Assembly: GCA_945870155.1 (NCBI GenBank)
Contig: CAMBSB010000003.1
Span: 16,708 to 80,707 of the forward strand
Source: Paludibacter jiangxiensis
Lineage (GTDB): Bacteria; Bacteroidota; Bacteroidia; Bacteroidales; Paludibacteraceae
DNA: 64,000 bases
Reading direction: 5' to 3'
The position numbers were made by a program, and so were the translations under genes. Under the pieces are notes generated by a model. It searched no databases, was not told where the DNA came from, and saw nothing but the letters and a program-made list of their open reading frames with translations. Shown piece after piece: positions 5,391 through 51,818 of this stretch. How positions within the stretch are numbered: the first letter of the stretch is position 1; the number at the start of each line of letters is the position of its first letter.

Positions 5391-5468
5391 TATACAGATA
5401 ACTGACTATATACTCAAATATAGCGGATATACTAATTAAACTAAGTATATTTATGAGTTAGCTGCCAT
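5391..5468 (+). other. attC-like recombination hairpin (AAC...GTT); near-copy at 51741-51818
   Basis: TAACT..ATATACT / AGTATAT..AGTTA inverted arms ending GTTAGCTGCCAT. Same 54-nt AAC-to-GTT spacing and sequence as 51741-51818. Confidence 0.55.
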
Positions 5469-5500
5469 AGTAAAAAAACAATTATCTTTATATAAACAAT

Positions 5501-6331
5501 ATGAAACAGCATCCATTTTCATTATACGATTTTATTGGATATTTCATTCCTGGGGCAGCATCAATTTATTTGATTCAAATAGTAAATACAATTAAGAAAA
5601 GTAATTGTATTGATTTAAATGTTATCTTAACGTCATTTCCATCTGTAAAGACTGAAGGTATTTTAATATTTCTTATTTTCTCATATGTACTAGGACATTT
5701 ATTAAGTTACATTTCTTCTATTACAATCGAAAAATATGCTGTATGGAAATATGGATATCCTTCTAAGTATTTATTGGACATTAATACAAACAAATATTGG
5801 ACTGGAGCCAAAAAATTTCACAGTATTTTTTGGCGTATTTGTCTGATTTTCCTTTTATTGCCAACCGTAATCCTTGATTTTATTCTTGGACATTATTTTG
5901 GATTTAAAATTTTTTATTCAAGCAAACTTGACCCAATGTTAATTAAGCTCATTAAGTTTAAAATTAATTGTTTAGCTATTAAAATTGGTATAAACCCTAA
6001 AAATGGATTTGAAAATGGTGAAGCCAATAAAAGTGATTTTAATAGAATAATTCTTCATTATACTTATGAGAATTCAAAGAACCATCAAAGTAAACTATCT
6101 AATTATGTTTCTATTTATGGTTTTTTGAGAACTTTCACACTAATCACTAATGTCTTATTTTGGTATTTCATTTTTCATACTTTGTTCTATGGTACATTTG
6201 ATTTAAGTTCTAATTTGACAATTATAGGAATCTCAATTGTATCTTATCTTTTCTTTATGTCGTTTATGAAGTTTTATCGGCGATATACATTAGAAGGATT
6301 AATGATTCTATCAATTGATAAAGAAATATAG
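5501..6331 (+). CDS. Hypothetical multi-pass membrane protein
   Basis: 276-aa ORF with about 4-5 hydrophobic segments and an N-terminal SLYDFIGYFIPG motif. Confidence 0.75.
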   Translation: MKQHPFSLYDFIGYFIPGAASIYLIQIVNTIKKSNCIDLNVILTSFPSVKTEGILIFLIFSYVLGHLLSYISSITIEKYAVWKYGYPSKYLLDINTNKYWTGAKKFHSIFWRICLIFLLLPTVILDFILGHYFGFKIFYSSKLDPMLIKLIKFKINCLAIKIGINPKNGFENGEANKSDFNRIILHYTYENSKNHQSKLSNYVSIYGFLRTFTLITNVLFWYFIFHTLFYGTFDLSSNLTIIGISIVSYLFFMSFMKFYRRYTLEGLMILSIDKEI

Positions 6332-6508
6332 TCATTTGCTATAATTTCTCTGACTAATTATTGACGAACTATTTTTCAAAATATATACAATATAAACTAT
6401 AGAAATTGATTTTGACCCCTACATTGGGGGTGTGAAATACAAGATAATATATATTTTGGCTTTACAATAGAAAAGTACGGGAAAGGTGGAATTTCAAACA
6501 ACGAAGAG

Positions 6509-6742
6509 GTGAAACCATACAGACAAATCATTAAAAATTGTGATGATCTTTATAATGAAGATTCTCCAAACTGGTTAGGGTGGTTGTATCCAACACCAAT
6601 GTTGAATTTTAGAGATTTTAGTTCACAAGAGATATTTGCTCTTGTCGATAGGGCAACTCTTGAAAAAACAACAAATCAAATTGCAGAGAAAGCACTTTGT
6701 GACATTACATTTGTTCTAGAGAGAATAAAAAATACAAATTGA
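6509..6742 (+). pseudogene. Probable gene fragment
   Basis: 77-aa GTG-start ORF whose stop is followed by an attC-like left end; no recognisable domain. Confidence 0.3.
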
Positions 6743-6754
6743 ATAAGAACGAGT

Positions 6755-6810
6755 GCTTAACATCATAGGAATTAAACGCATCACCCTGTTTGACTTAGCG
6801 TAGTTAGCGT
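6755..6810 (+). other. Degenerate attC-like site
   Basis: GCTTAAC (RYYYAAC) just after a stop codon, and GTTAGCG at 6803. Arms are weak. Confidence 0.35.
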
Positions 6811-6811
6811 G

Positions 6812-7000
6812 TTTGTACGGCATAGCGTCACACTATGTCGCCAGCTAATAGCAAGGCTTCGCCTTGCAAAATCAGTAGTAGAATAGTATTATATTTGCTA
6901 TTAATATGGAAAACTGGAGTTTTCCTTTTAGCTTCGACATAAGCTGGAGCCTATGCCAAACAACGAGTAGCAAGATTTTTATACGCTACAAAGAACAGGG
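6812..7000 (+). repeat. Repeat family A, copy 2 (lacks the CCGATAGCTATCGG insert)
   Basis: Direct alignment with 3953-4154. Confidence 0.9.
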
Positions 7001-7828: not shown

Positions 7829-7863
7829 TGTAAAATAAGACATAAAAATACATACCCTTCATA

Positions 7864-8060
7864 GTGGATATATCTAATTTATATTTATGCACAAAATGTG
7901 AGTTGCGCGCTAGGTGGGATTTGCAATCCCACCTATTGAATTAAACGGATTTACAATCCGTTATAATAATTAATTTATATTAAGGATTAAAAATCCTCAA
8001 TTAAAAAAGTTGGGATTGCAATTTTTCGCAAGCTCAATACCGCTGGTTCCCAACTACAGC
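7864..8060 (+). repeat. REP-like composite element, best-preserved copy (5' parts also at 13206-13264 and 56425-56486)
   Basis: GGATATATCTAATTTATATTTATGCACAAAATGTGAGTTGCGCGCTAGGTG followed by GTGGGATTTGCAATCCCAC, CGGATTTACAATCCG, GGATTAAAAATCC and TTGGGATTGCAA..TCCCAA hairpins. Confidence 0.85.
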
Positions 8061-8143
8061 GTTCCGAACCTTTCTACAAATAAATAGAAGTATATCCAGT
8101 AGGACAAGGACCAAGTCGTAAACGAATAAATTATAAAAAACAT

Positions 8144-11470: not shown

Positions 11471-11615
11471 GCGGTAACTCACGCCTCGGTCGTCAGTCTG
11501 CTCAAAAACTAAAATGAATTGATGTGAATCTCGTATTTGAAATTTTTTACGGTCAGGGGGGCGAATAAATAAAGGAGCAGTTGAGGTTTTTGCGCAGACT
11601 CTCGTTGGCAGCAAG
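11471..11615 (+). other. attC-like site between Lamassu and the OLD-type nuclease
   Basis: GCGGTAAC at 11471; inverted arms GTCTGCTCAAAAACT (11496-11510) / AGGTTTTTGCGCAGAC (11584-11599); right end GTTGGCAGCAAG. Confidence 0.55.
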
Positions 11616-11681
11616 TGTAAAAAAAAACAACAGATTGGCATCTCAAAAATAAAAAATATAAATAACACTTAAATATATAAA

Positions 11682-13184: not shown

Positions 13185-13275
13185 AAATAACTATCTCCAA
13201 TATCCGTCCTAGCGGATATATCTAATTTATATTTATGCACAAAATGTGAGTTGCGCGCTAGGTGTTCAAAAAAAA

Positions 13276-14249
13276 ATGAATTAATGACCACCCCTAACCC
13301 CTCCAAGGAGGGGAATAGCTTAGTGAAATGAAAAGGCTTGTAAATAAAATAGGAGATGAAGAATATAAAATTACCAAGTAACAATCCAAAAACAGACGAA
13401 CTGCACCCCTCCTTGGAGGGGCTGGGGGAGGTCGATACTCCCAAACGAGCTGAATACAACACTGCTGATTCGGATGTATATGGTTTTATAAAGGATGCCA
13501 GAAGAGATCTTTTGGAACATCCAACACATGCAGAGATAATGCTTTGGAAGTATTTGAAAAGTAATCAAACTGGGTATAAATTCAGGCGACAACATGTGAT
13601 AGGTAAATATATTGTAGACTTTGTGTGTTTACCCAAAAAGCTAGTTGTAGAGATTGATGGAAAGATACATTTAAAACAGCAGGTAGACGATGCTATAAGA
13701 ACAGCAGACTTGAATACCTTAGGTTTTCGTGTTATTAGATTTAAAAATGAAGATGTTTTTCTTAATGTTTCAAATGTAGTGGCAGATATAAAAAAGGAAT
13801 TGGAACTGTAAATAAATATCAGACCACCCCTGACCCCTCCAAGGAGGGGAATAGTTTAGTGAAATGAAAAGGCTTGTAAATAAAATAGGAGATGAAGACT
13901 ATAAAATTACCAAACAACAATCCAAAAACAGACGTACTGTACCCTCCCGATAGCTATCGGGGTGGAGGGGCTGGGGGAGGTCGGCACATCAAAATATACT
14001 GAATAACTCATTTATATAAGCAGATAAATTCAACTTAATATTTTGCGCAAAATTCCACGTCATGTTATCTAGAAATTTGAATTAATGACCACCCCTAACC
14101 CCTCCAAGGAGGGGAATAGCTTAGTGAAATGAAAAGGCTTGTAAATAAAATAGGAGATGAAGACTATAAAATTACCAAGCAACAATCCAAAAACAGACGA
14201 ACTGCACCCTCCCGATAGCTATCGGGGTGGAGGGGCTGGGGGAGGTCGG
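13276..14249 (+). repeat. Three ~160-175 bp direct repeats (13276-13434, 13822-13984, 14078-14249) with GC-rich hairpin ends
   Basis: GACCACCCCT(A/G)ACCCCTCCAAGGAGGGGAATAG...GGAGGGGCTGGGGGAGGTCG is repeated nearly identically. Confidence 0.95.
13356..13811 (+). CDS. DUF559 / very-short-patch-repair-like endonuclease
   Basis: PTHAEIMLWKYLK, YKFRRQHVIGKYIVDFVC, LVVEIDGKIH, D..RT..L..LGFRVIRF.N. Confidence 0.9.
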   Translation: MKNIKLPSNNPKTDELHPSLEGLGEVDTPKRAEYNTADSDVYGFIKDARRDLLEHPTHAEIMLWKYLKSNQTGYKFRRQHVIGKYIVDFVCLPKKLVVEIDGKIHLKQQVDDAIRTADLNTLGFRVIRFKNEDVFLNVSNVVADIKKELEL

Positions 14250-14486
14250 TAATTTAGAACATGCTGAAAATAAACTTTTTTACCAACGAATTTATTCAAC
14301 TTTATCATTACATCCAAAAGCTAAGAGATGCGCTAGTTAGGAATCATATGTAATTGCAAGCTTATGACCGCTGGTACCAAACAATAAGGTTCCGAATCAT
14401 ACCACAAATAAATCAGATAAATACCTTGTAAGACTAATCTACTTACAACAGAAATAAACTTTCCTGAATTAAATTATAATGCTGAT

Positions 14487-15264: not shown

Positions 15265-15268
15265 GCCA

Positions 15269-17751: not shown

Positions 17752-20700
17752 ATGAAAAAGATTTTTTTTATTATTGCTTTACTTACTATCTTTATTGTTA
17801 ATATACATGCACAAAGTTGCACGCCACCATCAAAGCCAACCGGTTTAACTGCAACTGCCGTTTCTTCTTCACAAATTAACCTTAAATGGAATGCTGTTAC
17901 TGGTGCAATAGGGTATGATTTATCTTATTGTGATGGCACCTATATTGGTTTTGTTTCTGGTACAACTTATAGTCATACAGGTAGAGTTGCTAGTACTACA
18001 TATTCCTATAAAGTTCAAGCTCAAAAGAGTGCAACCTGTGTATCCGGGTTTACGACTTGTGTTAGTGCTACAACACAGAGTAGTTGCACGCCACCATCAA
18101 AACCAACAGGATTAAGTGCAACTGCCGTATCTTCGTCTCAAATTAATCTAAGCTGGAGTGCTGTTTCTGGTGCAATTGGTTATGATGTTTATTATTGCGA
18201 TGGTACATATATTGGTTTTGTTTCTTCTACATCTTATAGTCATACGGGTAGAGCTGCTAGCACAAACTATTCATATAAAATACAAGCGCAAAAAAGTGCA
18301 ACCTGTCTATCTGGATTTACTACTTGTGTGAGTGCTACAACTCAAAGTAGTTGTACTCCACCATCAAAACCATCAGGATTAAGTGCAACTGCTGTTTCTT
18401 CTTCACAAATTAATTTAAGCTGGAGTTCTGTATCTGGCGCAATTGGGTATGATGTTTATTATTGCGATGGGACATATATTGGTTATGTTACTGGTACTTC
18501 TTATAACCATACGGGTAGAGCAGAAAACACCAACTATTCATATAAAATACAAGCACAAAAAAGTGCAACATGTGTATCTGGATTTACAACTTGTTTTAGT
18601 GCTACAACTCCAAGTAGTTGTACACCACCTTCTAAACCCACGGGGTTAACAGCAACTGCTGTTTCTTCTTCACAGATTAACCTTAGTTGGAATGCTGTAT
18701 CTGGAGCAATCGGATATGATGTTTCTTATTGCGATGGAACATATATTGGATATGTTACTGGAACTTCTTATAGCCACACAGGTAGAGCAGAAAACACAAA
18801 CTACTCCTATAGAGTTCAAGCACAAAAGAGTGAATCGTGTGTTTCAGGTTTTACTTCTTGTGTGAGTGCTACAACTCCAAGTAGTTGTACACCACCTTCA
18901 AAACCTACAGGATTAACAGCAACTGCTGTTTCTTCTTCACAGATTAACCTTAGTTGGAATGCTGTATCTGGAGCAATCGGATATGATGTTTCATATTGTG
19001 ATGGAACATATATTGGATATGTGACTGGAACTTCTTACAATCACACAGGTAGAGTAGAAAACACGAACTATTCCTATAAAATTCAAGCACAAAAGAGTGC
19101 AACTTGTGTTTCCGGTTTTACAACTTGTTTTAGTGCTACAACTCCAAGTAGTTGTACACCACCTTCAAAACCCACGGGATTAACAGCAAATGCTGTTTCT
19201 TCTTCACAGATTAACCTTAGTTGGAATGCTGTTTCTGGAGCAATCGGATATGATGTGTCATATTGCGATGGAACATATATTGGATATGTGACTGGTACTT
19301 CTTACAGTCATACAGGAAGAGTAGAAAACACGAACTATTCCTATAAAATACAAGCACAAAAGAGTGAATCGTGTGTTTCCGGATATACGTCTTGTTTTAG
19401 TGCTACAACTCCAAGTAGTTGTACACCACCTTCAATACCCACGGGTTTAACAGCAACTGCAGTTTCTACTTCACAGATTAACCTTAGTTGGAATGCTGTT
19501 TCTGGAGCAATCGGATATGATGTGTCTTATTGTGATGGAACATATATTGAATATGTGACTGGAACTTCTTACAATCACACAGGTAGAGTAGAAAACACGA
19601 ACTATTCCTATAAAATACAAGCACAAAAGAGTGCAACTTGTGTTTCCGGTTTTACAACTTGTTTTAGTGCTACTACTCCAAGTAGTTGTACACCACCAAC
19701 AATACCCGCGGGTTTAACAGCAACTGCTGTTTCTTCATCACAGATTGACCTTAGTTGGAATGCTGTTTCTGGCGCAATAGGATATGATGTGTCATATTGT
19801 GATGGTACATATATTGGATATGTTACTGGCACTTCATATAGTCATACAGGAAGAGTCGAAAACACGAACTATTCTTATAAAATACAAGCACAAAAGAGCG
19901 CAACTTGTATTTCGGGATTTACAACATGTGTGAGTGCTACAACTCAAATTGGACTTGGAACACCAACATTATTATCACCTGCAAATGGAACTTCTTTTAA
20001 TGTTGGTTCAACATTGAGCTTGTCATGGAGTACAGTTGCTAATGCTACCTCTTACGATGTTGAGTTTGATAATGGTACAACTTTTTCATACACATATAAT
20101 TCTCCGACTAATAGTTATAGTGCTATAGTTGAGGCATCCAGCGTTGGCTCTCACACATGGCGTGTTCGGGCAAAAAACCCTACAGGTTCGGGTACTTGGA
20201 CAACAACACCAAGGTCGTTCACTGTGGTTTCCGGCATCCCAACTGTTGCCCCCACGCTGATAGCTCCCGCTGATGATGCGACAGTGATTGCAAATGTATC
20301 AACCAGGTTTAGTTGGAACACTGTAACAGGTGCAATGGGCTATGACCTTCAGTTTAATAACGAATCAATTATTGACAGAGGTAGTTCTACCAGTTTTGAT
20401 CTGTTAACCAGTAGCCTTGGATCTGGCACATGGAAAGTACGGGCAAAGAACACTGCTGGTGCAGGTCCTTGGTCATCACCCAGATCGTTCACTACCGTGT
20501 CCGGGAATATTGTCAATTTACAGATACAGACCTTGAATATTGATAATACCTTCATTCCTTTTCCCGGAGTAAACGGAAAAGTATTATTGTATGATTTAAA
20601 CAAAAAATATTTAAACAAATTTGAAAAAACAAGCACATCAGGAGTTTCAACCTTTTCAAATCTTGCATATGGAAATTATTTCATTGAAGCTTACCACCTT

Positions 20701-24720: not shown

Positions 24721-24784
24721 GACGTTCTTTCTTTAAAATGTTGATAAATTATCAGACAGGCACATGAATCGCCAATGCATAATA

Positions 24785-24907
24785 GGCGGTATATTTTATT
24801 GTCGAGACATTGCGGGTTTCAGCGTTTCTGATTCTAAAAACTTTCGTGTGCCTTGACAGTGATGTGCTCCGAAATCGGCAACAAAAATATACCGCCAGTA
24901 GTTATCC
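24785..24907 (+). other. attC-like site with long inverted arms
   Basis: GGCGGTATATTTTATTGTCG (24785-24804) pairs with CGGCAACAAAAATATACCGCC (24876-24896), followed by GTT at 24901. Confidence 0.55.
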
Positions 24908-25315
24908 CCCTGTTCGGCGTAGGTTGGCACTTATTATTTTTTGCATAGCTTCCCTTGTTCCGCATTGTTTAATTCGCGCTGCATGTTCGGTGTAGTTTCC
25001 AAACTAAATCAGGTTAAAATGAAAGCTACAGCTTTACATATTCAAATAATGTGTAAAGCTGGTTCCGATAGCTATCGGAATCCTTTTAGCTTTGACTTGA
25101 CGAGACGCTATGCCAAGCATCTCGTAATGAGTTTTATACAATACAAAGAACAGGGAAGTTTGAGTTTTGACATGTAAATAAAAAAGTAAAATTAAAAATA
25201 TGAAGATTAATAATTTGCACAAGATCAAATCAAAACAGATGAACAGCACCCTCCCGATAGCTATCGGGAGGTGAATAGCTTAGTGAAATGAAGGAGACAT
25301 GTAAATAAAGGCCTT

Positions 25316-25489
25316 GGCTACCAAAACCGAGACAATGCTCTCTCCAACAAACAACAACAAACAGCAACAATCAAGGGGTTGCAACCCCTTGTTGAGGGAA
25401 AATCCAGTGCAGACTTTAGCGGTACAAGGGCTTACATTTGGTTGGCTGCCAAAACCGACGCAATGCTCTCTCCAACACACAACAACAAA
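25316..25489 (+). repeat. Two ~46-bp direct repeats flanking a perfect 20-bp palindrome
   Basis: GGCT(A/G)CCAAAACCGA..CAATGCTCTCTCCAACA.ACAACAACAAA at 25316 and 25444; CAAGGGGTTGCAACCCCTTG at 25372-25391. Confidence 0.85.
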
Positions 25490-25541
25490 GTTATATGTAT
25501 CTGACAAATTGTATTTTAAATATAAGAAAAAGTATAGGAAT

Positions 25542-40367: not shown

Positions 40368-40796
40368 ATGCCGATGAAACATATTCAAATTATTAATGGA
40401 CCAAATCTAAATCTACTAGGTAAAAGAGAACCAACGGTTTATGGAAATCAATCATTTGAAGCATATTTTGATGTTTTAAAAACAAAATTTCCGACCTGTG
40501 AAATGTTTTATTTCCAGTCGAATACCGAAGGCGCAATAATTGATAAAATTCATGAAGTAGGTTTTACTTACGATGCAATAATTATTAATGCAGGAGCTTA
40601 CACGCATACTTCTGTGGCCATAGCCGATGCAATTAGAGCAATTACAACACCAGTTATTGAAGTTCATATATCCAATGTTTTCAAACGGGAAGCATTTCGG
40701 CATCATTCCTATTTAAGCGAAGTATGCAAAGGTTGCATAGTTGGTTTTGGACTCGATTCGTACCGACTAGCAATAGACTCGGTCTTGAATGCTTAA
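40368..40796 (+). CDS. aroQ: Type II 3-dehydroquinate dehydratase
   Basis: INGPNLNLLGKREPTVYG, NAGAYTHTS, EVHISNV. Confidence 0.97.
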   Translation: MPMKHIQIINGPNLNLLGKREPTVYGNQSFEAYFDVLKTKFPTCEMFYFQSNTEGAIIDKIHEVGFTYDAIIINAGAYTHTSVAIADAIRAITTPVIEVHISNVFKREAFRHHSYLSEVCKGCIVGFGLDSYRLAIDSVLNA

Positions 40797-40856
40797 TTGT
40801 ATTTACAAAACGATATTTAAAATATTAAATTAAACTTTTTACAACATATTTATTTT

Positions 40857-42299
40857 ATGCCAAAATCAACAAAAATCGTTGCTACTATTAGCGATAAAAA
40901 TTGTGAAATAGACTTTATCAGAGAACTTTACATAGAAGGAATGAATGTTGTGCGGATGAATTCTGCACATTTACAAAGCGAAGGATTTCTGAAAATCATC
41001 AACAATGTACGAGCGGTAAGTAAACACATTGCCCTATTAATGGATACCAAAGGACCTGAAGTGAGAACAACTATTGCCGAAAATGATGCCATAGAAATAA
41101 AAACCGGCGATATGCTTAAAGTTGTAGGGAATCCTGAACTAGTTTCTACAATTCATTGCATTTCAGTAAATTATCCATTTTTTGTTCGCGATTTGCATGT
41201 AGGAGATGATATACTTTTTGATGATGGAGAAATTGACCTTAAAGTTGAATCGAAAACCGATGATTACTTGCTTTGTAAAGCATTGAATGATGGCACCTTA
41301 GGCAGTCGTAAAAGTGTAAACGTTCCGGGAGTTCGTATTAATTTACCTTCACTTACTGAGCGCGACAGACAAAATATCCTCTTTGCCATTGAAAATAATC
41401 TCGATTTTATTGCTCACTCATTTGTACGCAACAAACATGATTTGTTGGATATTCAAAAAATACTCGATGAACATAAAAGTCCAATAAAAATTATTTCTAA
41501 AATTGAAAATCAGGAAGGTGTTGATAATATTGACGAAATACTTCAATATACTTATGGAGTAATGATTGCCCGTGGTGATTTAGGAATTGAAGTTGCTCAG
41601 GAAAAAATACCGGGAATTCAACGACGACTCATACGTAAATGCGTAAAAGCCAAAAAACCTGTTATTGTGGCAACGCAAATGCTACACACCATGATAAAGA
41701 ACCCACGCCCAACGCGTGCTGAGGTTACTGATATTGCCAATGCAATTTATTACCGTACAGATGCTTTGATGCTTAGCGGCGAAACTGCTTATGGCAAATA
41801 TCCGGTGGAAGCTGTGAGAACCATGGCCAAAATAGCTAAAGAAGCTGAATTGACAAAAATGTCGGAAAATGATATTCCTATTGACATCAGCACCAACGAC
41901 TTAACGTCATTTCTTTGTAATGCAGCAGTTGATACAAACGAAAAATTAGGTACCAAAGCAATAATTACCGACACTTACAGCGGACGTACAGCGCGTTATT
42001 TAGCGGCTTACAGGGGTGTAAATCCTATATTAGCTATCTGTTATCATGAGCGATCAACGCGCGAATTAGCCCTTTCATACGGGGTATTTCCCATATATAA
42101 AGAAAGCAAAGGAAACACACAACAATATTTTATTGAAGCACTTAAAGACTTAATTAGCAATGGTTGGGTTGAGAATGAAGATTCAGTTTGTTATTTAAGC
42201 GGTAGCTTTGGCGAAGGCTTTGGAACAACTTTCTTGGAAGTAAATCAGGTCAATAAAATTTTAGAAGCACGCGGACAGTATTTGTTACCAAATTTCTGA
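40857..42299 (+). CDS. pyk: Pyruvate kinase
   Basis: TKIVATI, DTKGPEVR, KIENQEG, ARGDLGIE, ATQML, MLSGETA. Confidence 0.98.
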   Translation: MPKSTKIVATISDKNCEIDFIRELYIEGMNVVRMNSAHLQSEGFLKIINNVRAVSKHIALLMDTKGPEVRTTIAENDAIEIKTGDMLKVVGNPELVSTIHCISVNYPFFVRDLHVGDDILFDDGEIDLKVESKTDDYLLCKALNDGTLGSRKSVNVPGVRINLPSLTERDRQNILFAIENNLDFIAHSFVRNKHDLLDIQKILDEHKSPIKIISKIENQEGVDNIDEILQYTYGVMIARGDLGIEVAQEKIPGIQRRLIRKCVKAKKPVIVATQMLHTMIKNPRPTRAEVTDIANAIYYRTDALMLSGETAYGKYPVEAVRTMAKIAKEAELTKMSENDIPIDISTNDLTSFLCNAAVDTNEKLGTKAIITDTYSGRTARYLAAYRGVNPILAICYHERSTRELALSYGVFPIYKESKGNTQQYFIEALKDLISNGWVENEDSVCYLSGSFGEGFGTTFLEVNQVNKILEARGQYLLPNF

Positions 42300-42317
42300 A
42301 AAAAAGAATATTTATTC

Positions 42318-42354
42318 AGAGGTGTTTAAAATCATTAAACACCTCTTTTTTTTT
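42318..42354 (+). terminator. Intrinsic terminator after pyk
   Basis: AGAGGTGTTT / AAACACCTCT stem followed by a T-tract. Confidence 0.85.
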
Positions 42355-42455
42355 CAATATAAGACCTAATATTTAAAACTTTTTTCAAACTTCATCGTTA
42401 AACCATTCTAGTATTAATTAGTCTAAACTCAAATATAATTTAACTCACATAATTA

Positions 42456-44912
42456 ATGAAAAAGATTTCGATTTTCCTTGTTTTAATTTTCCTAGTTTCT
42501 CCAATTTTTGCTTTGTACACAATTAAAGGTAAAATAATTGACGCAGGCACTGAACAACCCCTCGACTTTGTAAATATTGCCTTATTAAAACCAAACAGTG
42601 AAATTCCAACAGTAGGTATAACTTCGGATAATAAAGGAGCTTTTGTTCTTCCTCAGGTTACCAACGGAAAATACACCTTACGTGTAAGTTTTGTTGGTTA
42701 TAATACCATTAACATACCACTAAATGTTAACTCAAATGAGCTGAATTTAGGAATAATTAAACTAATAGAAGACAGTAAAGCATTGTCAGAGATTGAAGTA
42801 TTGGGACAAGGCTCACAAATGACATTCGACATTGATAAAAAAGTATTTACTGTAGATAAAAATATTGCCGCCGCCGGAGGTTCTGCTTCGGATGTGTTGC
42901 AAAACATTCCATCGGTTGATGTTGATGGCGAGGGTAATGTTTCGTTACGCAACAGCAGCAGTGTGGAAGTTTGGATCAATGGAAAACCATCGGGACTTAC
43001 TGCCGATAATCGTGCACAGGTATTGCAACAAATGCCTGCCGAAAGTATTGATAAAGTTGAAGTTATGACTAACCCTTCGGCTAAATTTAAACCGGAAGGA
43101 ACTTCGGGGATCATTAATATTGTTTTGAAGAAAAACCGCAAAGCCGGTTATTACGGTAGTTTATCGGCCGGACTAATGTATGTGGATGGTTCAAAACCTA
43201 CCGGTACTTTAGGTGCAAATATAAATTATAGTAGCTCAAAAATTGATGCATATTTGAATATTGGTTATAGAGCTATGGATTTTACAGGTGGAGGATATAG
43301 TAATAGGTTTGGGTTGAATGGTACAGATACTATTTCAATTTTAAAACAAACGCAAACTATGAATAGGGGTTATAGTGGCCTTTTTGGACGTGGTGGCATT
43401 GATTATCATTTAAATGACAAGCATACTTTAAGTGTTTCAAGTTTCGGTATGTTGGGAAGTGGTTATTCAAGTACAAATATTGACTATAGTTTTAAAAATT
43501 TATTGCCGGTAAGCACAAGAAATTATAATCGTTTAAACACTGGTGATGGCACACGTCCCAGTTTAAGTGTAAGTTTTGATTATAAGTACGATATTGACAA
43601 ATTAGGTTCTAACCTGATGGTTGATTTAACTCTATCAAATCACAGTCGTACAAGCAATGAGCATATTATTCAAACCGAAAACCCATCTAACACAAAGAGC
43701 TCAGATTATACTCAAAGCTATGAGGGGAATAATAACGAAACAGAATTCAAACTGGATTATACTAAAAAATTCAGTGAAAAAACCAGGATGGAATTGGGTG
43801 TAAATTCAACTTTCGAAAAACGTGAAAGTCCTTCGGAAGCTTTTGATAATTTAAAAAATCAGGAAAAAAAGGAGTATTTCAATAAATTCATTCAATCGGA
43901 AAATATAAATGCAGCTTATGCAACTTTCGGCAGTCGCATTGGAAACCTGAGCTATCAGGGAGGCTTAAGAGCTGAGTATTTTCAACAAGATTGGACAAAT
44001 ACATACTATCAAAATAATTTGCCAAAAACAGATGTAGGAACTCCGGTAAATAAATTGCAACTTTTCCCAAGTGCATTTTTATCATACACTTTGCCCAAAA
44101 AAGATGAACTTCAATTAAACATTACCCGTCGTATTCGCCGACCTCATGGCAGAGATATTAATCCATTCAGAATGTATTCTGACTCAACAAATATATCATA
44201 CGGTAACCCGACTCTTCTTCCGGAAATTACAACGGCATTTGAATTTAATTATCTCAAAACCTGGGAGAATCATTCTTTATCATCCTCGGCTTACTACCGT
44301 TTTACAGACGATGTGATGCAAAACGTGCAGTACTTTAACAATAATACCATGGAAAATACCACCATGAATGTGTCAAAGTCGAGTAATATAGGATTGGAAT
44401 TGGTGGCAAAAAACAGGTTCTTTAAAATTATTAACCTTACGTCATCACTTAATCTGTATTACAACAGATTGGATTCGAGCAGTTATATCAGCATTTACAA
44501 TCCGGCTATTGTTACCGCCATACCTGAAAAAGAACTGTTTAGCTGGAACATCCGTTCTATGGCCAATATTATTTTAGGCAAAAACACTTTTCTACAGTTA
44601 AGTGGCGACTATTCGGCTCCGCGCCTAATTGCTCAAGGAAAAGAAACAGCCAGTTATGCCTTTGATTTGGGATTGCGACAAACATTAATGAATAAAAACC
44701 TGAGTTTAAATTTAATGGTGCGAGATATTTTCAATACACGCAGACGTAGCACAACAATTAATGGAGCCGGTTTTTATCAAAAATCAGAATCGTATATGAT
44801 GGGTAGAATGATAGGACTGACAGCGACTTATAATTTTGGAAATATGAAACCAAAACAAACCGAAACAAAGAAGAATTCTAGCGATATGAATATGGATGGG
44901 GGAATGGATTAA
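42456..44912 (+). CDS. TonB-dependent receptor / outer-membrane beta-barrel protein with N-terminal carboxypeptidase-regulatory-like domain
   Basis: Signal peptide, plug region (NIPSVDVD, IDKVEVMTNPSAK...GIINIVLK), beta-barrel strands. Confidence 0.85.
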   Translation: MKKISIFLVLIFLVSPIFALYTIKGKIIDAGTEQPLDFVNIALLKPNSEIPTVGITSDNKGAFVLPQVTNGKYTLRVSFVGYNTINIPLNVNSNELNLGIIKLIEDSKALSEIEVLGQGSQMTFDIDKKVFTVDKNIAAAGGSASDVLQNIPSVDVDGEGNVSLRNSSSVEVWINGKPSGLTADNRAQVLQQMPAESIDKVEVMTNPSAKFKPEGTSGIINIVLKKNRKAGYYGSLSAGLMYVDGSKPTGTLGANINYSSSKIDAYLNIGYRAMDFTGGGYSNRFGLNGTDTISILKQTQTMNRGYSGLFGRGGIDYHLNDKHTLSVSSFGMLGSGYSSTNIDYSFKNLLPVSTRNYNRLNTGDGTRPSLSVSFDYKYDIDKLGSNLMVDLTLSNHSRTSNEHIIQTENPSNTKSSDYTQSYEGNNNETEFKLDYTKKFSEKTRMELGVNSTFEKRESPSEAFDNLKNQEKKEYFNKFIQSENINAAYATFGSRIGNLSYQGGLRAEYFQQDWTNTYYQNNLPKTDVGTPVNKLQLFPSAFLSYTLPKKDELQLNITRRIRRPHGRDINPFRMYSDSTNISYGNPTLLPEITTAFEFNYLKTWENHSLSSSAYYRFTDDVMQNVQYFNNNTMENTTMNVSKSSNIGLELVAKNRFFKIINLTSSLNLYYNRLDSSSYISIYNPAIVTAIPEKELFSWNIRSMANIILGKNTFLQLSGDYSAPRLIAQGKETASYAFDLGLRQTLMNKNLSLNLMVRDIFNTRRRSTTINGAGFYQKSESYMMGRMIGLTATYNFGNMKPKQTETKKNSSDMNMDGGMD

Positions 44913-45138
44913 AGAAGATTTGAGGTTTGAAGAGTTGAGAGTTTGAGGGATGAGGGATGAGGAGTTTCGGGATGACTGAGTTCCGACTCAGTCAATTATT
45001 AGTTTGAAGTTTGTTACTTTTCATTTTCACATTCTTACATTATTCACACTTCTCATCAAGTCTATAGTCTTTGTTCTTTATTCTTTATTCTTTATTCTAT
45101 TTCGCATTTAATCAATTGTAAATCTTTCAATTGTACAT

Positions 45139-45900
45139 TTAAAATTTCAATTGTCTTCTTCTAAATTCGGCACAAACAAGTGCAGTGGCAACACCAACAT
45201 TTAATGATTCGGAGGTTGGTTCATTTATAGGAAAGTTAGGTATCAACAAGCGATTGTTAACTAACTTTTCTATGTTTTCGGATATCCCATTTCCTTCATT
45301 GCCCATTACAATTATACCAATGGGGGTTAAAGCTTGGTTGTAAATATCATTTCCATCCATAAAGGTTCCATAAACAGGGATATTTGCAGGCAGCTTAGAT
45401 AAGAATAAATTTAAATCGACATAATGTACTTTTACACGACTCAATGCGCCCATGGAAGCTTGAACGGCTTTTGGGCTGTAAGCATCCACGGTTAATAAAG
45501 AGCAATAAATATTATGAATTCCAAACCAATCAGCAATTCGAATGATTGTACCAAAATTTCCGGGATCTTGAATATTGTCAAGAGCCAAACACAATTCATT
45601 CGAAAAGTCAACACCTGATATGTCGTAGATATTCTTTTTAAAAACAGCCAAAACGCCTTGAGGTGTTTTTTGATTCGAAATTTTATTAATTTCTTCGTCC
45701 GAAACTATTTGTATGTCACACGATATAAAGGATTTATACTCAATAGCCCAATTTGATGTGGCAAAAACTTGATGAGCATTAAAACTTTTCGATAAATCCA
45801 ACACTAATTTTGTTCCTTCGGCAACAAACAAGCCTAATTCATCGCGAAATTTCTTTTGCGATAAAGAAGAAATGAGTTTAATTTGGTTTTTTGATAACAA
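45139..45900 (-). CDS. TrmH/SpoU family RNA methyltransferase
   Basis: FVAEG, LDNIQDPGNFGTIIR, GNEGNGIS, SLNVGVA. Confidence 0.95.
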   Translation of the reverse strand: MLSKNQIKLISSLSQKKFRDELGLFVAEGTKLVLDLSKSFNAHQVFATSNWAIEYKSFISCDIQIVSDEEINKISNQKTPQGVLAVFKKNIYDISGVDFSNELCLALDNIQDPGNFGTIIRIADWFGIHNIYCSLLTVDAYSPKAVQASMGALSRVKVHYVDLNLFLSKLPANIPVYGTFMDGNDIYNQALTPIGIIVMGNEGNGISENIEKLVNNRLLIPNFPINEPTSESLNVGVATALVCAEFRRRQLKF

Positions 45901-46100
45901 TTTTTTTGTGGTTAAATGTGTTGAAAAACTATTATAAATCTTGCTTTAAGCAACAAAACTAACAAAGAAAGTTGTAAACTCAAAAAAAACAGGACATTTA
46001 AAGTAGATATATTCAAAAATAAATCTAAAAAAGGATTTTCTTAATAATAATATTGTCAATTTAAAGTATATTTGCATGACTAAAAACCTATTCAATTTAA

Positions 46101-48362
46101 ATGAGTCATAAATTCAAAAATATTATATTATCACTTTCCATCTTCCTTTGGGCATGTAATACTACCAAACATGTTCCCGATGGCGAATATTTACTTGATA
46201 AATATAAAATTCATTCTGACATTCCCGGTTTAAATCAGGATATTTTGGAGGAGTATTTGCGTCAAACGCCCAATGCCACGGCACTTAAAGCATTAAAAAT
46301 TCAACTAGCCATTTATAATATTGCCGGAAAGGACACAACAAAAAAGTTGAATAAGTTTTTTATGAAAATTGGAGAAGAACCGGTTCTTTTCAGTCAGCGA
46401 CTAACGGATATCTCTACTCAACAAATCCAGAAAGTAGTTGTAAATAAGGGTTATATCGACGCAGAAGTGATTAATAAAGTACAAATTGATAACAAAAAAG
46501 TCAGGGTAGATTATTACATTAATTCTAAAAAACCTTATACAATTAACAAATATAGTGTCGACATTCAGGACTCTATTTTATTATCGGTAGCCAATGACAC
46601 TTCGAAAAGTTTAATTCAAGATGGAATGTTGTTTGATGTTGATGTTTTTGATGAGGAACGCCAACGAGTGACAACAAGTGTTAGAGAAATAGGCTTTTAC
46701 AATTTCAACAAGGAGTATTTGGTTTATACTGCCGATAGCACTTTGTCATCGCATAAAATTAATTTGAACCTCGATTTGAATACATTTTTAAAACAGAATA
46801 AAGATTCTGTAAAAAATTATGTATTTACACAATTTAAAATTGGCAAGGTAATTTTTAATACCAACCTTATTAATAACCAGAATTCAGCTAACTTTAACTC
46901 TTCAAGTCTTGACACTACACAATTCAAAGATTTTATTTTAATAAGCCCAAAGGAAAAGTTTATTGATTTTAAAACATTGATTTTCAATACTTATATAAGT
47001 CCGAACACCTATTTCAATGACAAAGATGTTGAAAAAACTTACTCGGCATTAAACTCTTTAGGCCCGGTTAAATACGTAACTATCAGCTTTGTGGAAATGC
47101 CTAACAACACCCTCGATTGCATGATCAATATTATTCCGGCTAAAACAGTTTCGTTAAGTGCCGAAATTGAAGGAACTTACACCGGAGGTTATTGGGGAGG
47201 TGCTTTTAAACTTGGTACAGTGAATAAAAACGCCTTTAATGGTGCCGAAATTCTTTCAATTCAAGGGCGTTTAGCTACCGAATGGCAATCGGGAATATGG
47301 GCACAGGAATATGGAGCTCAGGTAGGATTAAAAATACCACGTTTTCTATTTCCTATCGGTAATTTTGATTTTAAACGAAGCATACATGCCAATACCGAAT
47401 TTACTTCGGATTTAAGTTATCAATTCCGTCCTTCAGAATTTACAGCAAGTAATATTAGTGCAGGCACAAGTTATAGTTGGGACAGATCGAAATACAAACA
47501 CAATTTTGAGCTTTTCAACCTGAGTTTGATGAATTTTGATTTGGATCAACAATTTATTACAAACTATATTGACACTAAAAAGTACAATATACATAATTAC
47601 GAAAGCAGGTTTATACTAAGAATGGGTTATAAGGGTTCATTCAGTAATTTTAATCCAAACCGTCCGAGTAGAAATTATTCCACTTACAGGTATAGCTTTG
47701 AATCGGCTGGAAATTTGCTTTATGGATTAAATAAACTGTTGTACTCCAAGCCTTCCTTTGATGGAAATTATAAAATATTTAATATCGCTTATGCTCAATA
47801 TGTTAGAGGCGAGTATAATACTTCATACAATCAGATTATTGACAAAAACAATCGTTTTGTATATCATTTAGGTTTGGGTTTAGGACTACCTTATGGCAAT
47901 GCCGATGTTTTGCCCTTTGAAAGAAGATTTTACAGCGGTGGTGCAAATAGTGTTAGAGGTTGGAGCGAAACACAACTCGGACCCGGTAAATACAAAAGAA
48001 TCAGCAATGTAAAAATTCGGGATTATAATCAGGTGGGCGATATAAAGCTTGATTTAAACATGGAATACCGGGCAAAACTATTTTGGTTTTTTGAAGGAGC
48101 ATTGTTTTTAGATGCCGGCAATGTTTGGACAATGAAGCAATACGACGAACAACCGGGTGGAGAATTCCGTTTCGATTCGTTTATAAATCAAATTGCTATA
48201 GCTTATGGAGCCGGATTACGTATGGATTTTTCATTCTTTATAGTTCGTTTTGATATGGGTATCAGGCTATTCGATCCGGTTTTAATACGAACAGAACAAT
48301 GGAGAATTAAACCAGGGTCAGATGATTTTGCGTTCCATATTGGAATAGGATATCCATTTTAA
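46101..48362 (+). CDS. tamL: BamA/TamA family outer-membrane lipoprotein (TamL-like)
   Basis: Lipobox LWAC, POTRA region, YSGGANSVRGW motif, ends IGYPF. Confidence 0.8.
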   Translation: MSHKFKNIILSLSIFLWACNTTKHVPDGEYLLDKYKIHSDIPGLNQDILEEYLRQTPNATALKALKIQLAIYNIAGKDTTKKLNKFFMKIGEEPVLFSQRLTDISTQQIQKVVVNKGYIDAEVINKVQIDNKKVRVDYYINSKKPYTINKYSVDIQDSILLSVANDTSKSLIQDGMLFDVDVFDEERQRVTTSVREIGFYNFNKEYLVYTADSTLSSHKINLNLDLNTFLKQNKDSVKNYVFTQFKIGKVIFNTNLINNQNSANFNSSSLDTTQFKDFILISPKEKFIDFKTLIFNTYISPNTYFNDKDVEKTYSALNSLGPVKYVTISFVEMPNNTLDCMINIIPAKTVSLSAEIEGTYTGGYWGGAFKLGTVNKNAFNGAEILSIQGRLATEWQSGIWAQEYGAQVGLKIPRFLFPIGNFDFKRSIHANTEFTSDLSYQFRPSEFTASNISAGTSYSWDRSKYKHNFELFNLSLMNFDLDQQFITNYIDTKKYNIHNYESRFILRMGYKGSFSNFNPNRPSRNYSTYRYSFESAGNLLYGLNKLLYSKPSFDGNYKIFNIAYAQYVRGEYNTSYNQIIDKNNRFVYHLGLGLGLPYGNADVLPFERRFYSGGANSVRGWSETQLGPGKYKRISNVKIRDYNQVGDIKLDLNMEYRAKLFWFFEGALFLDAGNVWTMKQYDEQPGGEFRFDSFINQIAIAYGAGLRMDFSFFIVRFDMGIRLFDPVLIRTEQWRIKPGSDDFAFHIGIGYPF

Positions 48363-49012
48363 AATAATTCTTCACGCTGTTTAAGCTTATTGGGTAACTT
48401 GATTTTTTTTGGTTTCTTAGGTTTTTCTTCGCCAAGTAAATTAAAAGTCAGCCGGTGAAAGGTTGTAGTACCATATAATTTAATTGCCTCTCTATGCTTC
48501 ATGGTTGGATATGCTTTGTTTTTATTCCAATCGTACACCGGAAATCTTACGTGCAAAGCTTCCATTATTTCATCTCTGTGTGTTTTGGCCAATACCGAAG
48601 CCGCTGCAATAGAAAGAAATTTACTATCGCCTTTTACTAAGGTTTTATGCGGAATATCACGGTAGGGTTTAAACCTATTGCCATCCACTATAATAAATTC
48701 CGGACTTATATCTAGCTTATCCATAGCTCTTTGCATAGCTAAAATGGAAGCATTTAGAATATTGATTTTATCTATTTCGTTGTTATCAACTTCGGCTACA
48801 GCCCATACCAAAGCTTGACTTTCAATGATTGGACGTAATTTATTGCGAACTTTTTCGGTAAGAAGTTTTGAATCGTTCAGTTCAGGGCAATAAAAATCGG
48901 GCGGAAGTATAACTGCCGCAGCAACCACCGGACCGGCCAGGCAGCCTCTTCCTGCTTCATCGCATCCACATTCAAGTAAAAAAGTTGAAAACCTGCTTGA
49001 TAATACGTTCAT
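48359..49012 (-). CDS. rnhB: Ribonuclease HII
   Basis: GCDEAGRGCLAGPV, DSK, VDGN, KGD...IAAASVLAK. Confidence 0.97.
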   Translation of the reverse strand: MNVLSSRFSTFLLECGCDEAGRGCLAGPVVAAAVILPPDFYCPELNDSKLLTEKVRNKLRPIIESQALVWAVAEVDNNEIDKINILNASILAMQRAMDKLDISPEFIIVDGNRFKPYRDIPHKTLVKGDSKFLSIAAASVLAKTHRDEIMEALHVRFPVYDWNKNKAYPTMKHREAIKLYGTTTFHRLTFNLLGEEKPKKPKKIKLPNKLKQREELF

Positions 49013-49057
49013 GATTTTAATTGAAAAAAGATGGACTTCTTTTTATATTTTTTAATT

Positions 49058-49573
49058 CTATTCCTCTTTTTTGTTTTTTTGTGGCAAAATCTCCCTTGTT
49101 TTTACTTCCTCCCAAAGTTTAGGAGCTAAATTCATAATGGGTTTATGCAAAAACGAATCGGCCTTGGTTTCAGGACTTACAAAGTTAAACTTACTGTCGA
49201 TTACGTTAAACACTATCATTAATACACTCATAATCAAAGCATATTTCAAACCACCAAATAGTCCACCCAAAAATTTATTTAAGCCACCCAATGCAATTGA
49301 ATCGAAAAGCTTGTCCAACGAACTGGCAATAAATAATAAAACAATGGCAATAGCCACGAAAACAACAATATAAGCTACCGGTTGAGCAATTCTTAGTGAA
49401 AAATCAAAACTCTGTACCAATATATTCGAAACCAAGGGTGAAAATAATTTAGCGCCATAAATTCCTAAAATTATTGCCAATAAAGAAGCCAATTCTTTTA
49501 TCAATCCCTTAAACATTCCAAGTATAAAACCTATAACAATAGGTATAATAATTACCAAATCAATTGAATTCAT
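49058..49573 (-). CDS. cvpA: CvpA family (colicin V production) membrane protein
   Basis: G..KGLIKEL, LNKFLGGLFG; four TM helices. Confidence 0.9.
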   Translation of the reverse strand: MNSIDLVIIIPIVIGFILGMFKGLIKELASLLAIILGIYGAKLFSPLVSNILVQSFDFSLRIAQPVAYIVVFVAIAIVLLFIASSLDKLFDSIALGGLNKFLGGLFGGLKYALIMSVLMIVFNVIDSKFNFVSPETKADSFLHKPIMNLAPKLWEEVKTREILPQKNKKEE

Positions 49574-49893
49574 AATGCTTTAGTTTTTTGCAAAGATAAT
49601 TAAAAAACTTATTTTCAGTTATTTTCAGCATAAAATTCTATTGAACCAACTTAACATTTCATCCGTCACAAATTCAAATTGTTAAATATCAAGAAGAGCT
49701 TAATTGGTCTTGGGCAAATAACAAATGAATTATACGCCTCTTTTTCAATGATATATGAATATTAAACAAATATATTCTGTAGATTGAATCATGATTTAAA
49801 TTTCTGGCACAAGATTTGGACTACAAGAGAAAATGAAATTTATTACAAGAATATATACCAAACCAATTTTTCAACAATTAAAAATTATTTATT

Positions 49894-51216
49894 ATGAAAA
49901 CAAAAATTGCAAGCATGTTAGTGGTTTTGTTTATTACAACTTCCGCTCAACTTTGGGGACAGAGAAACATTAAAGTAGAAGCTTATAACAACGATATAAG
50001 TTATAATCTCGATTTACAAGCTGTAGCATCACTTTTTGGAGATTCAAAAGATTTGGAAGATTTCGAATATCGTTTGAATGATTACGATTCACAAATCTCA
50101 AATCTTGATTTAAACTCAGATGGACAGGTAGATTATTTAAGGGTAATTGAAACATCCGAAAACAATGTACATTTAATAGTGATACAAGCCGTACTCGACA
50201 GGGATGTTTTTCAGGATGTGGCTTCTATAGTTGTTGAACGCGACAGATACAGAAGATCATACATTCAAATTATTGGCGATCCTTATATGTATGGAACAAA
50301 CTATATAATTGAGCCTTACTATTATCGTACTCCTTTTATAGTTTCGTGGTTTTGGACTCCCAGATACAGAAGTTATTTTTCGCCTTACTATTACGGATAT
50401 TATCCCAGGTATTACAGATATCGTCACCCTTTAGAAATTAATATCTATTTAACCAAAATACATCGACACATAAACTACGATCACCAGTATCGATATACCG
50501 AAACAAGAAGAAATAATTATTCTTCACATTTACATAACTCTATCGGAAGAAATGATTATGGAACCAGATATCCTGAACGAAATTTCAGCCAACGAAACAA
50601 CAATAGCCGCAACCGCGAAGATATGGATCGCCGCTATCAATCGAATAAAGATGGTTCAAGAATTAACAAATCGGATGAAAGAGATAACCGCAGGATAAGT
50701 TCCGACAGCAAAACCGAAAGAGGTTCAAGAAGTACAAATGATGATATATACAATGGTTCAAGAAATGATAGCAGAAATACAAATAGCTCAAGAAACTCAT
50801 CGGATAATATTTATAGTAGACCAAGTAACGACAATAGAGTAAATGGCTCAAGAAACTCGAACACTGAAGGTAGAAGCAAGATTGATAATTCAACTATAAA
50901 TAAACGAGGAACTAACAACGAAGCTTCGGAAAGCAGAAACAACAGCTATAACCAACGCGAAACAGAACAAAGCAGATCGACCAGAGTTACTGCACCCGAA
51001 TCAAGAAGAAATGCTGAAACACCAACACCCAGAGTAACTAGGGAATCGAATACAAGAGTATCAGCACCAGCCAGAACCAGCGAACAAAAAGTAGAAAGAA
51101 GAAGCACTGAACGCAGTGCCCAACCAAGTAGAAGTGAATCAAAAAGCACTAATAATACTAGAAGTGATAGCAAAAATGACTCAAAAAGCGATAGCAGAAG
51201 CGATTCAAGAAGATAA
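49894..51216 (+). CDS. Secreted hypothetical protein with long R/S/N/D-rich disordered tail
   Basis: Signal peptide, globular domain with NLDLNSDGQVDY, Tyr-rich segment, ~200-aa low-complexity tail. Confidence 0.8.
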   Translation: MKTKIASMLVVLFITTSAQLWGQRNIKVEAYNNDISYNLDLQAVASLFGDSKDLEDFEYRLNDYDSQISNLDLNSDGQVDYLRVIETSENNVHLIVIQAVLDRDVFQDVASIVVERDRYRRSYIQIIGDPYMYGTNYIIEPYYYRTPFIVSWFWTPRYRSYFSPYYYGYYPRYYRYRHPLEINIYLTKIHRHINYDHQYRYTETRRNNYSSHLHNSIGRNDYGTRYPERNFSQRNNNSRNREDMDRRYQSNKDGSRINKSDERDNRRISSDSKTERGSRSTNDDIYNGSRNDSRNTNSSRNSSDNIYSRPSNDNRVNGSRNSNTEGRSKIDNSTINKRGTNNEASESRNNSYNQRETEQSRSTRVTAPESRRNAETPTPRVTRESNTRVSAPARTSEQKVERRSTERSAQPSRSESKSTNNTRSDSKNDSKSDSRSDSRR

Positions 51217-51264
51217 AAAATAATCAATTATGCAAAATCTGTTTGTTACAACATAATTGTATTT

Positions 51265-51296
51265 AAAAGCCACTAATTTTCTTTAGTGGCTTTTTT
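51265..51296 (+). terminator. Intrinsic terminator
   Basis: AAAAGCCACTA / TAGTGGCTTTT stem followed by a T-tract. Confidence 0.8.
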
Positions 51297-51740
51297 ATGT
51301 AAAACTGATTCATAGAGGAAAATACATTATTACATAATCTCAATCACTTAATATTATTGCTGTACTACTAATATTCGCCATAAATTTGATAAACTAACAA
51401 CCTAAATAGCACATAAACAAATACTCAAAAGACAAAAGAACTAAAATAAAAGTGCAGTGGCTTGATAATCAAAAAATATATGTCTCAATTTAAAACAATA
51501 GGCAATGAAAAAAAAAATCTTAATTATAAAATTCATTGGCTTAAATCATTAAATATGTACTTAAAACCACATATCCCTTTGAAGATAGATAAAACAAGGG
51601 TTTATTAAAACTTAGAGAAGGAGTAAAAAAATTTGCTCCTTTTTTTTATATTAATGTTTGATGTTTAAAAATAATTATTAACTTTGAGGGCTTAATTAAG
51701 TGAAAATATAAAACATATCACTTAAACAGAAAAGCTTCAT

Positions 51741-51818
51741 ATATACAGTTAACTAACTATATACTAAAATTTTGTGGAAATACTAAGTAAACTAAGTATA
51801 TTTATGAGTTAGCAGCAA
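51741..51818 (+). other. attC-like hairpin, near-copy of 5391-5468
   Basis: TATACAG.TAACT.ACTATATACT...TAAACTAAGTATATTTATGAGTTAGC.GC is shared. Confidence 0.55.

Follow-up and report, generated by a model that had tools for sequence, protein, structure and literature searches.

The window analysed here is a 64,000-nucleotide stretch of a Paludibacter sp. genome (G000:C3:16708-80707; assembly G000, 5.79 Mb, 339 contigs, 33% GC). It harbors a solitary hairpin site, at 24770-24911, that is probably explained by an integron-like gene cassette system of the Bacteroidota; the other sites noted in the window would be unrelated repeats, and the window as a whole an accessory region of a repeat-rich genome, with several unrelated dispersed repeat families in its intergenic spaces. 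In relatives the sites have a covarying structure and form arrays with a cassette-end signature and neighbouring recombinase genes; apart from the one site, the window contains none of these. An original prediction, made from this DNA alone, had noted attC-like sites bounded by AAC and GTT near 4229 and at 5391-5468, 6755-6810, 11471-11615, 24785-24907 and 51741-51818, and had proposed that the islands between them were built by a cassette system. All six stretches are present at these coordinates. The observation is thereby partly confirmed and the interpretation partly supported: it is right in kind, as the system is present in the genus and the phylum, and wrong in extent, as only one of the six sites belongs to it. 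The window is not a 46-kb cassette array, and the six sites fall into at least five unrelated repeat families (Table 1). In what follows, G-numbers denote genomes, C-numbers contigs and L-numbers fetched loci, and the genus is represented by 102 Paludibacter genomes.

A covarying family of hairpin sites

Integron attC sites have cores of the form RYYYAAC...GTTRRRY, and integron cassette arrays are rich in defence genes. The window site lies 50-65 nt past the stop of a gene for a 2322-aa repeat protein (17752-24720). Its stem arms are found at ~24785-24806 and ~24876-24897, with a conserved central TTGACAG; the right core GTT occupies 24901-24903, and the left core is degenerate, reading TAAT (24780-24783) for TAAC. 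A search of the genus with the intergenic region of this site returned copies of the element at 82-86% identity, and a dedicated search placed it in 30 of the 102 genomes. The site was aligned with 22 copies from 14 genomes, and a covariance model, R1, was built from the 23 copies. Compensatory (double) changes are found in 14 of the 18 stem pairs and almost no pair is broken in the aligned copies; the arms occur in at least six sequence variants, all of which keep their complementarity. Two positions are conserved and unpaired; at each, an A of the left arm invariably faces a C of the right. The distance from AAC to GTT is ~122-130 nt in the aligned copies, within the 57-141 bp of AAC...GTT-bounded attC sites; every copy has GTT, and 21 of 23 have AAC. 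Homology among the copies ends right of CCGTT(A/G) and, in most of them, at (T/C)AAC on the left. Only (T/C)AAC and GTT(A/G) are conserved in the cores, and neighbouring positions vary freely, so the family does not have the RYYYAAC/GTTRRRY consensus.

R1 matches six sites in G000, on six different contigs, and it matches in 77 of the 102 Paludibacter genomes, with at least 31 sites in the richest. Beyond the genus, matches are found in 50 of 120 sampled Bacteroidota genomes, representing 33 of 75 genera. A BLAST comparison of the site with plasmids gave one weak match; the sequence varies so much that BLAST is weak and a covariance model is needed. A position after co-oriented genes, together with strong covariation, could also indicate a structured non-coding RNA or a terminator at gene 3′ ends. 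We consider this highly improbable: Rfam, searched at gathering and E-value thresholds, returned nothing relevant, there is no T-run past the stem, and the flank signature and GTT unit borders described below are features at the DNA level that an RNA role leaves unexplained.

Arrays and the cassette-end signature

In the fetched arrays, the 43 R1 matches are co-oriented within each array, and the sites lie between accessory genes and share their orientation. At least 14 co-oriented sites span 25 kb in G092:C10, five sites spaced 1.2-1.4 kb apart are found in G041:C22, and six are found in G033:C7. The cargo beside the sites includes Eco57I-type restriction-modification, reverse transcriptase, TIR, czcD, a mer operon and an erm(F)-like gene. 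Co-oriented arrays with a recombinase are present in these relatives and absent from the window and from the rest of G000.

In relatives, each cassette comprises a gene or operon and, after it, an imperfect hairpin site of ~125-135 nt with AAC and GTT bounds; cassettes would be exchanged through site-specific recombination at or next to GTT. Exchange at this position would explain why the first 9-16 nt of a cassette are complementary to the stretch that directly precedes AAC in its own site. The 13 nt after the GTT of one site were compared with the complement of the 13 nt before the AAC of another. Cognate (consecutive) sites agreed at a mean of 7.57 of 13 positions (n = 28 pairs); 12 pairs reached at least 9, and in several others a perfect 9-mer preceded a shift of 1 nt. 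Non-cognate pairs agreed at 4.06 ± 1.69 of 13 positions (0.7% at 9 or more) and same-site pairs at 4.11. The flank after GTT thus matches the next site and not its own, which points to cassettes that can be circularised through exchange at GTT; a transposon whose ends match would produce the reverse pattern.

This comparison also bears on the proposal that the family is a palindromic miniature inverted-repeat transposable element (MITE) or repetitive extragenic palindromic (REP)-like element that accumulates between accessory genes and is no cassette site. Such an origin would suit a family that is multi-copy, dispersed and palindromic, with conserved arms, in a genome that is full of such repeats and encodes RAYT-like Y1 transposases. 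It is nevertheless very unlikely. The ends of a transposon should match each other, the reverse of the same-site and next-site values above; the sites delimit entire gene units, which move between species; and array sites share the orientation of the genes, with IntI-like recombinases at the array heads.

One mobile unit is a 1394-nt segment comprising an erm(F)-like rRNA methylase gene and a site, found at L069:5365-6758 (G065) and in L070 (G095). The unit is 99.8% identical in the two species, whose housekeeping genes are ~72% identical, and this identity indicates recent transfer as a cassette. Its borders read ...CCGTTA on the right and CGTTG on the left, and it starts with 9 nt exactly complementary to the 9 nt before the core of its own site. 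The gene itself is 82-87% identical to erm(F) on Bacteroides and Riemerella plasmids. In G068, czcD lies between two sites; of 14 positions at the start of this cassette, 12 match the complement of the bases that flank its own site on the left. No site accompanies the czcD orthologues of G037 and G041, which are 75% identical. The breakpoints of gene gain and loss on which the original prediction was staked therefore fall favourably in relatives, both in the exact CCGTTA end of the erm(F)-like unit and in the 28 cassettes tested for a cognate end signature.

In L056 (G097:C1:1598-1605 kb) and L059 (G068), czcD, an AraC and DUF6448 pair and an ArsR-MerT-MerA operon each lie between sites with the cognate end signature.

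Recombinases adjoining the arrays

The tyrosine recombinases at array heads are 457-524 aa or ~302 aa in length and contain SAM-like and Phage_integrase domains; some array recombinases have an N-terminal extension of ~250 aa. The best PDB match of an array-head recombinase is the Vibrio integron integrase IntI4 (2a3v, 144.6 bits; XerA 121, XerD 87). Canonical IntI was defined by a TIGR02249 score at or above 265 bits. The array-head recombinases fall below this cut-off, and their match is split between positions 7-179 and 236-315, indicating that they lack the IntI-specific insertion. The recombinase gene is located 1.4-7 kb from sites in G092, G041, G065, G095, G062, G080 and G097, and some arrays share its orientation.

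The linked tyrosine recombinase sought by the original prediction is thus found beside arrays in relatives and not in G000, which retains only a 53-aa C-terminal remnant of the array type on C150 (72% identical) and IS91-linked recombinases (35% identical). No canonical IntI was found in G000, where the best TIGR02249 matches, at 96 and 81 bits, are split, and, as had been noted for the window, no tyrosine recombinase is encoded there or elsewhere on contig C3. A single match above the cut-off among the 102 genomes, in L062 (G039:C136), was rejected as a canonical IntI of the genus: this 2.3-kb contig has 54% GC in a genus of 33-38% GC and is likely a binning contaminant.

In G092:C10, a simple inverted repeat ending ...ACGAGTT (L068:6060-6112) is found just 3′ of the array-head recombinase and is a candidate attI-like site. 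It is followed by a unit of ~500 nt that has no open reading frame (ORF) and carries a short 95-nt site (L068:6504-6598); this unit recurs three times in the array.

The proposed system and the window copy

An IntI-like tyrosine recombinase adjacent to the array may catalyse the exchange, with the site acting, we presume, as a folded single strand. Of this system, G000 retains only six scattered sites and a recombinase remnant.

Several observations weigh against this explanation. Some consecutive pairs do not have the signature (2-3 of 13 positions); intermediate sites were possibly missed in these cases. The association with recombinases is loose, as a long recombinase is found in ~59% of genomes with BLAST-detected sites and ~42% of the rest. 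Exchange is deduced from cassette borders and the end signature. The window copy has AAT for AAC and no recombinase nearby, and no cognate partner was found upstream of it in the window; consequently, its status as a cassette site rests on homology. Finally, the 3′ flanks of repeat families 1 and 3, described below (GTTRGCAGCAAG followed by an A-run), resemble the 5′ ends of cassettes in real arrays, so that divergent site classes may be under-called. No cognate partners for these two families were found in the window. An unbiased scan of the window for complementary GTT.../...AAC pairs was dropped as too noisy in 33% GC DNA. With these points taken into account, the integron-like system remains our preferred explanation of 24770-24911, and the window copy could be the relic of a past cassette insertion.

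The other noted sites are unrelated repeats

The site at 24770-24911 is the only significant R1 match in the window with filters off. Under the same settings the score at 5389-5467 (9.9 bits, E 2.2) is noise, and there is no match at E ≤ 10 at 51741, 6755 or 11471. Folding as single-stranded DNA, a check that the original prediction had proposed, separates the sites in the same way: 24785-24907 exceeds shuffled sequences (z of -4.6 and -3.1), whereas 5391, 51741, 6755 and 11471 do not (-1.9 to +0.75). AAC...GTT-bounded inverted repeats as such carry no signal in the window. Ungapped repeats with at least 11 of 16 pairs number 30, against 28.8 ± 5.0 in dinucleotide shuffles, and those with at least 12 of 16 number 4, against 6.4; none of the noted sites reaches the threshold. 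Pattern matching on AAC and GTT alone over-calls sites in AT-rich DNA. Of the attC cores that had been invoked, RYYYAAC is found at 6755 only (GCTTAAC) and GTTRRRY at none of the noted sites. It is true that the sites are followed by co-oriented ORFs, but this is uninformative, because nearly all genes across 1-45 kb are on the + strand. The supposed lone right end near 4229 has neither repeat family, structure nor partner in the genome. The sites at 5391, 51741, 6755 and 11471 belong instead to repeat families with other explanations.

Table 1. Features of the window discussed in the text.
Feature	Position	Strand	Remarks
Solitary attC-like hairpin site, Bacteroidota integron-like system (probable)	24770..24911	+	R1 122.5 bits, E 1.5e-27
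Repeat family 1, dispersed promoter-plus-leader module	51612..51829	+	Upstream of DUF6175 gene; five genome copies, four whole
Truncated family 1 copy, leader part only	5370..5478	+	Hairpin 5391-5468
IS91-family right-end terminus, last 28 nt, reverse orientation	6759..6786	+	Eight genome copies; left half of site 6755-6810
Small terminal-inverted-repeat element, family 4	6784..7000	+	Ends CCCTGTTTGACTTAGCGTA / TACGCTACAAAGAACAGGG; 217 nt, inserted into IS91-end remnant
Terminal-inverted-repeat element, family 5	5122..5360	+	Ends CCCTGTC..GGATAT; nested small hairpin inserts
Element with family 6 left end and family-5-like right end	7855..8105	+	Between UDG-like gene and ABC-3C/Lamassu-like operon
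Repeat family 3, ~125-150-nt palindromic repeat	11471..11630	+	Arms CAGTCTGCTCAAAAAC / GTTTTTGCGCAGACTC; site 11471-11615
"Lone right end"	4215..4245	+	Self-match only; loose resemblance to AATTAAACG of IS91-end repeat

The sites at 5391 and 51741 had been described as near-identical; the identity is 83% over 109 nt (5370-5478 against 51721-51829). Both belong to family 1, a species-specific promoter-plus-leader module. The whole copy at 51612-51829 consists of a terminator-like hairpin with a T-run, a -33 TTTG (51657-51660), a -7 TAACTTTG (51679-51686) and a leader of ~150 nt that contains the hairpin 51741-51818; the pairing of -33 TTTG with -7 TAACTTTG is the Bacteroidota promoter type. The conserved unit reaches ~130 nt upstream of the hairpin part in four copies, and the hairpin decays without compensation in two of the five. 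As the original prediction had it, these repeats precede unrelated genes, which is the case across the copies of the family. In the truncated copy, homology begins at CTTAAACA, and the upstream part is replaced by the inverted-repeat element 5122-5360. A role as a conserved leader of the DUF6175 gene was rejected, as family 1 is absent upstream of the orthologues in relatives.

Site 6755-6810 combines the remnants of two elements. Its left half, which begins TTAAC directly after the stop of a gene fragment, is the terminus of an IS91-family right end, and its right half is the left inverted repeat of a family 4 element. The IS91-family element on C150 (C150:7388-10071, L001) contains an IntI-like recombinase of 303 aa, a Y2 transposase and a hairpin right end that reads ...GATGTTAG, a full-length copy of which lies ~275 nt 3′ of the transposase gene. 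The ends of the element, TAAC...GTTAG, are defined by internally deleted derivatives on C125 and C131, in which the right end is joined to the left part. The element fits the IS91 family, which is marked by a Y2 HUH transposase whose N-terminus binds zinc, by ends that bear hairpins and by a lack of target duplication. The G097 copy has the Y2_Tnp and Zn_Tnp_IS91 domains, and the C150 copy was assigned via gene order and partial DNA similarity. The 24785 family was considered as the end of an IS91-like element in G097 and rejected in that role, the right end of that element being ~700 nt away. The left-end hairpin block of the IS91 element, ~140 nt long, is also found on C117 in solo copies, which lie between small co-oriented ORFs, and has weak R1 scores of 22.9-34 bits.

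Site 11471-11615 is a member of family 3 and is found between the ABC-3C operon and the AAA_15/21 ATPase gene. The genome contains one full copy (C98) and four copies of the 3′ part, and copies 78-85% identical are found in another species, upstream of an unrelated gene.

The whole 5391-51818 span could still be, or once have been, an array, with 5391/51741, 6755 and 11471 as structurally different classes of one site superfamily. All of these sites share an AAC...GTT(A/G) frame. The motif GTTRGCWGCMA occurs 4 times in the window against 0.16 expected, a count to be read with the motif having been derived post hoc and two of the matches being homologous copies. The 16 nt from the GTT at 51808 are identical to the 5′ end of a cassette in G095, a similar 3′ flank is seen in the short 95-nt sites of G092, and the IS91-element left-end block has the weak R1 scores given above. 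We regard such an array as unlikely, since R1 has no significant match at these sites and their folds are no better than shuffles. Moreover, family 1 is preceded by a promoter module and not by a gene end in four of five copies, with uncompensated hairpin decay in two; the window holds no cognate partners; and the 40-49.6 kb interval is filled with housekeeping genes (aroQ, pyk, rnhB and others, 40368-49573), so that the span is not a single island. It is equally doubtful that the defence island is a decayed array in which the short AT-rich hairpin of family 1, family 3 and the IS91-end hairpin blocks are all substrates of IntI-like recombinases, including those borne by IS91 elements. If this were true, IS91-borne recombinases, the Bacteroidota system and classical integrons would form one evolutionary series.

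Comparison with known systems

The proposed Bacteroidota system resembles integrons, in particular sedentary chromosomal integrons and attC-site clusters that have no integrase (CALINs), in its unit of a gene plus an imperfect AAC...GTT-bounded hairpin of ~125-135 nt, in a structure that is conserved while the sequence varies, with conserved unpaired stem positions, and in its co-oriented arrays. As in integrons, a cassette begins with bases complementary to the inner left core of its own site, the array has beside it a tyrosine recombinase from the IntI-like subgroup, and defence and resistance genes abound in the cargo (restriction-modification, TIR, reverse transcriptase, erm(F)-like, czcD, mer). 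Unlike integrons, it has a recombinase without the IntI-specific insertion and below the TIGR02249 cut-off; complementarity at the cassette ends extends over 9-16 nt, against 6-7; the cores have AAC and GTT(A) as their only invariant part, in place of RYYYAAC/GTTRRRY; core and stem are separated by 1 nt on the left side and by 4-5 nt on the right; and some arrays are co-oriented with the recombinase gene. IS91/ISCR elements with an integron-like tyrosine recombinase are a second point of comparison. The C150 element is like them in its recombinase, Y2 transposase and TAAC...GTTA hairpin ends; these are the ends of an insertion sequence, however, not cassette sites, and the copy at 6755 is a 28-nt remnant. 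The recombinases of IS91 elements have been described as the closest homologues of IntI, and they do not have the insertion (10.1101/542381).

In an integron survey, the Bacteroidetes had integrases without cassettes (In0) and one complete integron only (10.1101/2022.02.28.482270), and a preprint counts Bacteroidota among the clades without integrons (10.1101/2024.07.02.601686). Our literature searches found no description of this Bacteroidota cassette system. Integrons are held to need the IntI-specific domain; judged from its sequences, the system described here appears to follow the same logic with IntI-like recombinases that do not have it. The system is found in 77 of the 102 Paludibacter genomes and ~40% of the sampled Bacteroidota. 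It would call for a broader definition of integrons and could account for their having been missed by surveys of this phylum. It may also provide a route for defence and resistance genes, such as the erm(F)-like gene, mer and czcD, in environmental and gut-related Bacteroidota.

Gene content and further repeats of the window

The closest species representatives are only ~77% identical to G000 in housekeeping genes, and exact-protein look-ups for two island proteins gave no match; no near-identical strains are on record. Defence-like genes are found at 2.2-13.8 kb (a UDG-like gene, the ABC-3C/Lamassu-like operon, the AAA_15/21 ATPase gene and a DUF559 gene), followed by a lysis-like cluster at 14.9-17.4 kb and an ECF sigma/serpin region at 27-38 kb. 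The DUF6175 operon extends from 51904 onward, beginning with the DUF6175 gene itself (51904-52860). DNA-level comparison with related species indicates that the accessory genes at 2.2-14.3 kb are separated by dispersed repeats which are common to the genus, while the genes are not.

Families 4, 5 and 6 have terminal inverted repeats of 17-20 nt, up to 65 nt in family 6. A family 4 copy in a relative (L016) has a perfect 20-bp terminal repeat; copies are found in many genomes of the genus, and a second, 5′-truncated copy is located at 3954-4155 of the window. The family 5 element at 5122-5360 starts 4 nt past the stop of ORF 4272-5117. Of 17 copies of this family in the genome, 15 start 1-54 nt past the stop of a co-oriented ORF and 0 have the opposite orientation, and the post-stop pattern is also found in other Paludibacter species. 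Isolated left halves of family 6 are present at 13200-13264 and 56419-56483. The three families resemble REP/BIME, ERIC and Correia-type repeats and MITEs in having terminal inverted repeats, a length of 190-310 nt, a dispersed distribution, nested hairpins and a post-stop position. They differ in the orientation bias of family 5 (15 versus 0) and in that neither target-site duplication nor an autonomous partner was found: the flanks of 11 intact copies contain no direct repeat, and no terminal-repeat pair encloses a transposase. RAYT-like Y1 transposases were considered as the source of the GGGATT..AATCC hairpins and rejected, as their genes are flanked by different REPs.

Within the window, the inverted-repeat elements at 5122-5360, 7855-8105 and 3954-4155 have ends of the CCCTGT type. 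CCCTGT-type elements form gene-repeat-gene series among small secreted-protein genes (C8:54.8-58.9 kb, C75:13.6-16.3 kb, C169 and C12). The inverted-repeat end of a repeat of this type is located at 24906, 2 nt after the GTTAT of the cassette-type site. Two more multi-copy elements, at 25488-25775 and 25772-25924, are found genus-wide at 70-90% identity, and the second of these matches REP clusters flanking the gene for a REP-associated Y1 transposase (RAYT-like) on C16. At 13276-14268, the DUF559 endonuclease gene begins within a hairpin-ended repeat and is followed by two gene-less copies of the repeat; the repeat-plus-gene unit is duplicated at C59:5453-6267 with 83% identity, and the stretch 25232-25268 of the window belongs with these. 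Finally, the palindrome CCGATAGCTATCGG (4060-4073, 25063-25076, 13946-13961 and 14211-14226) is present or absent within otherwise aligned copies of several repeat families and behaves like a micro-insertion.

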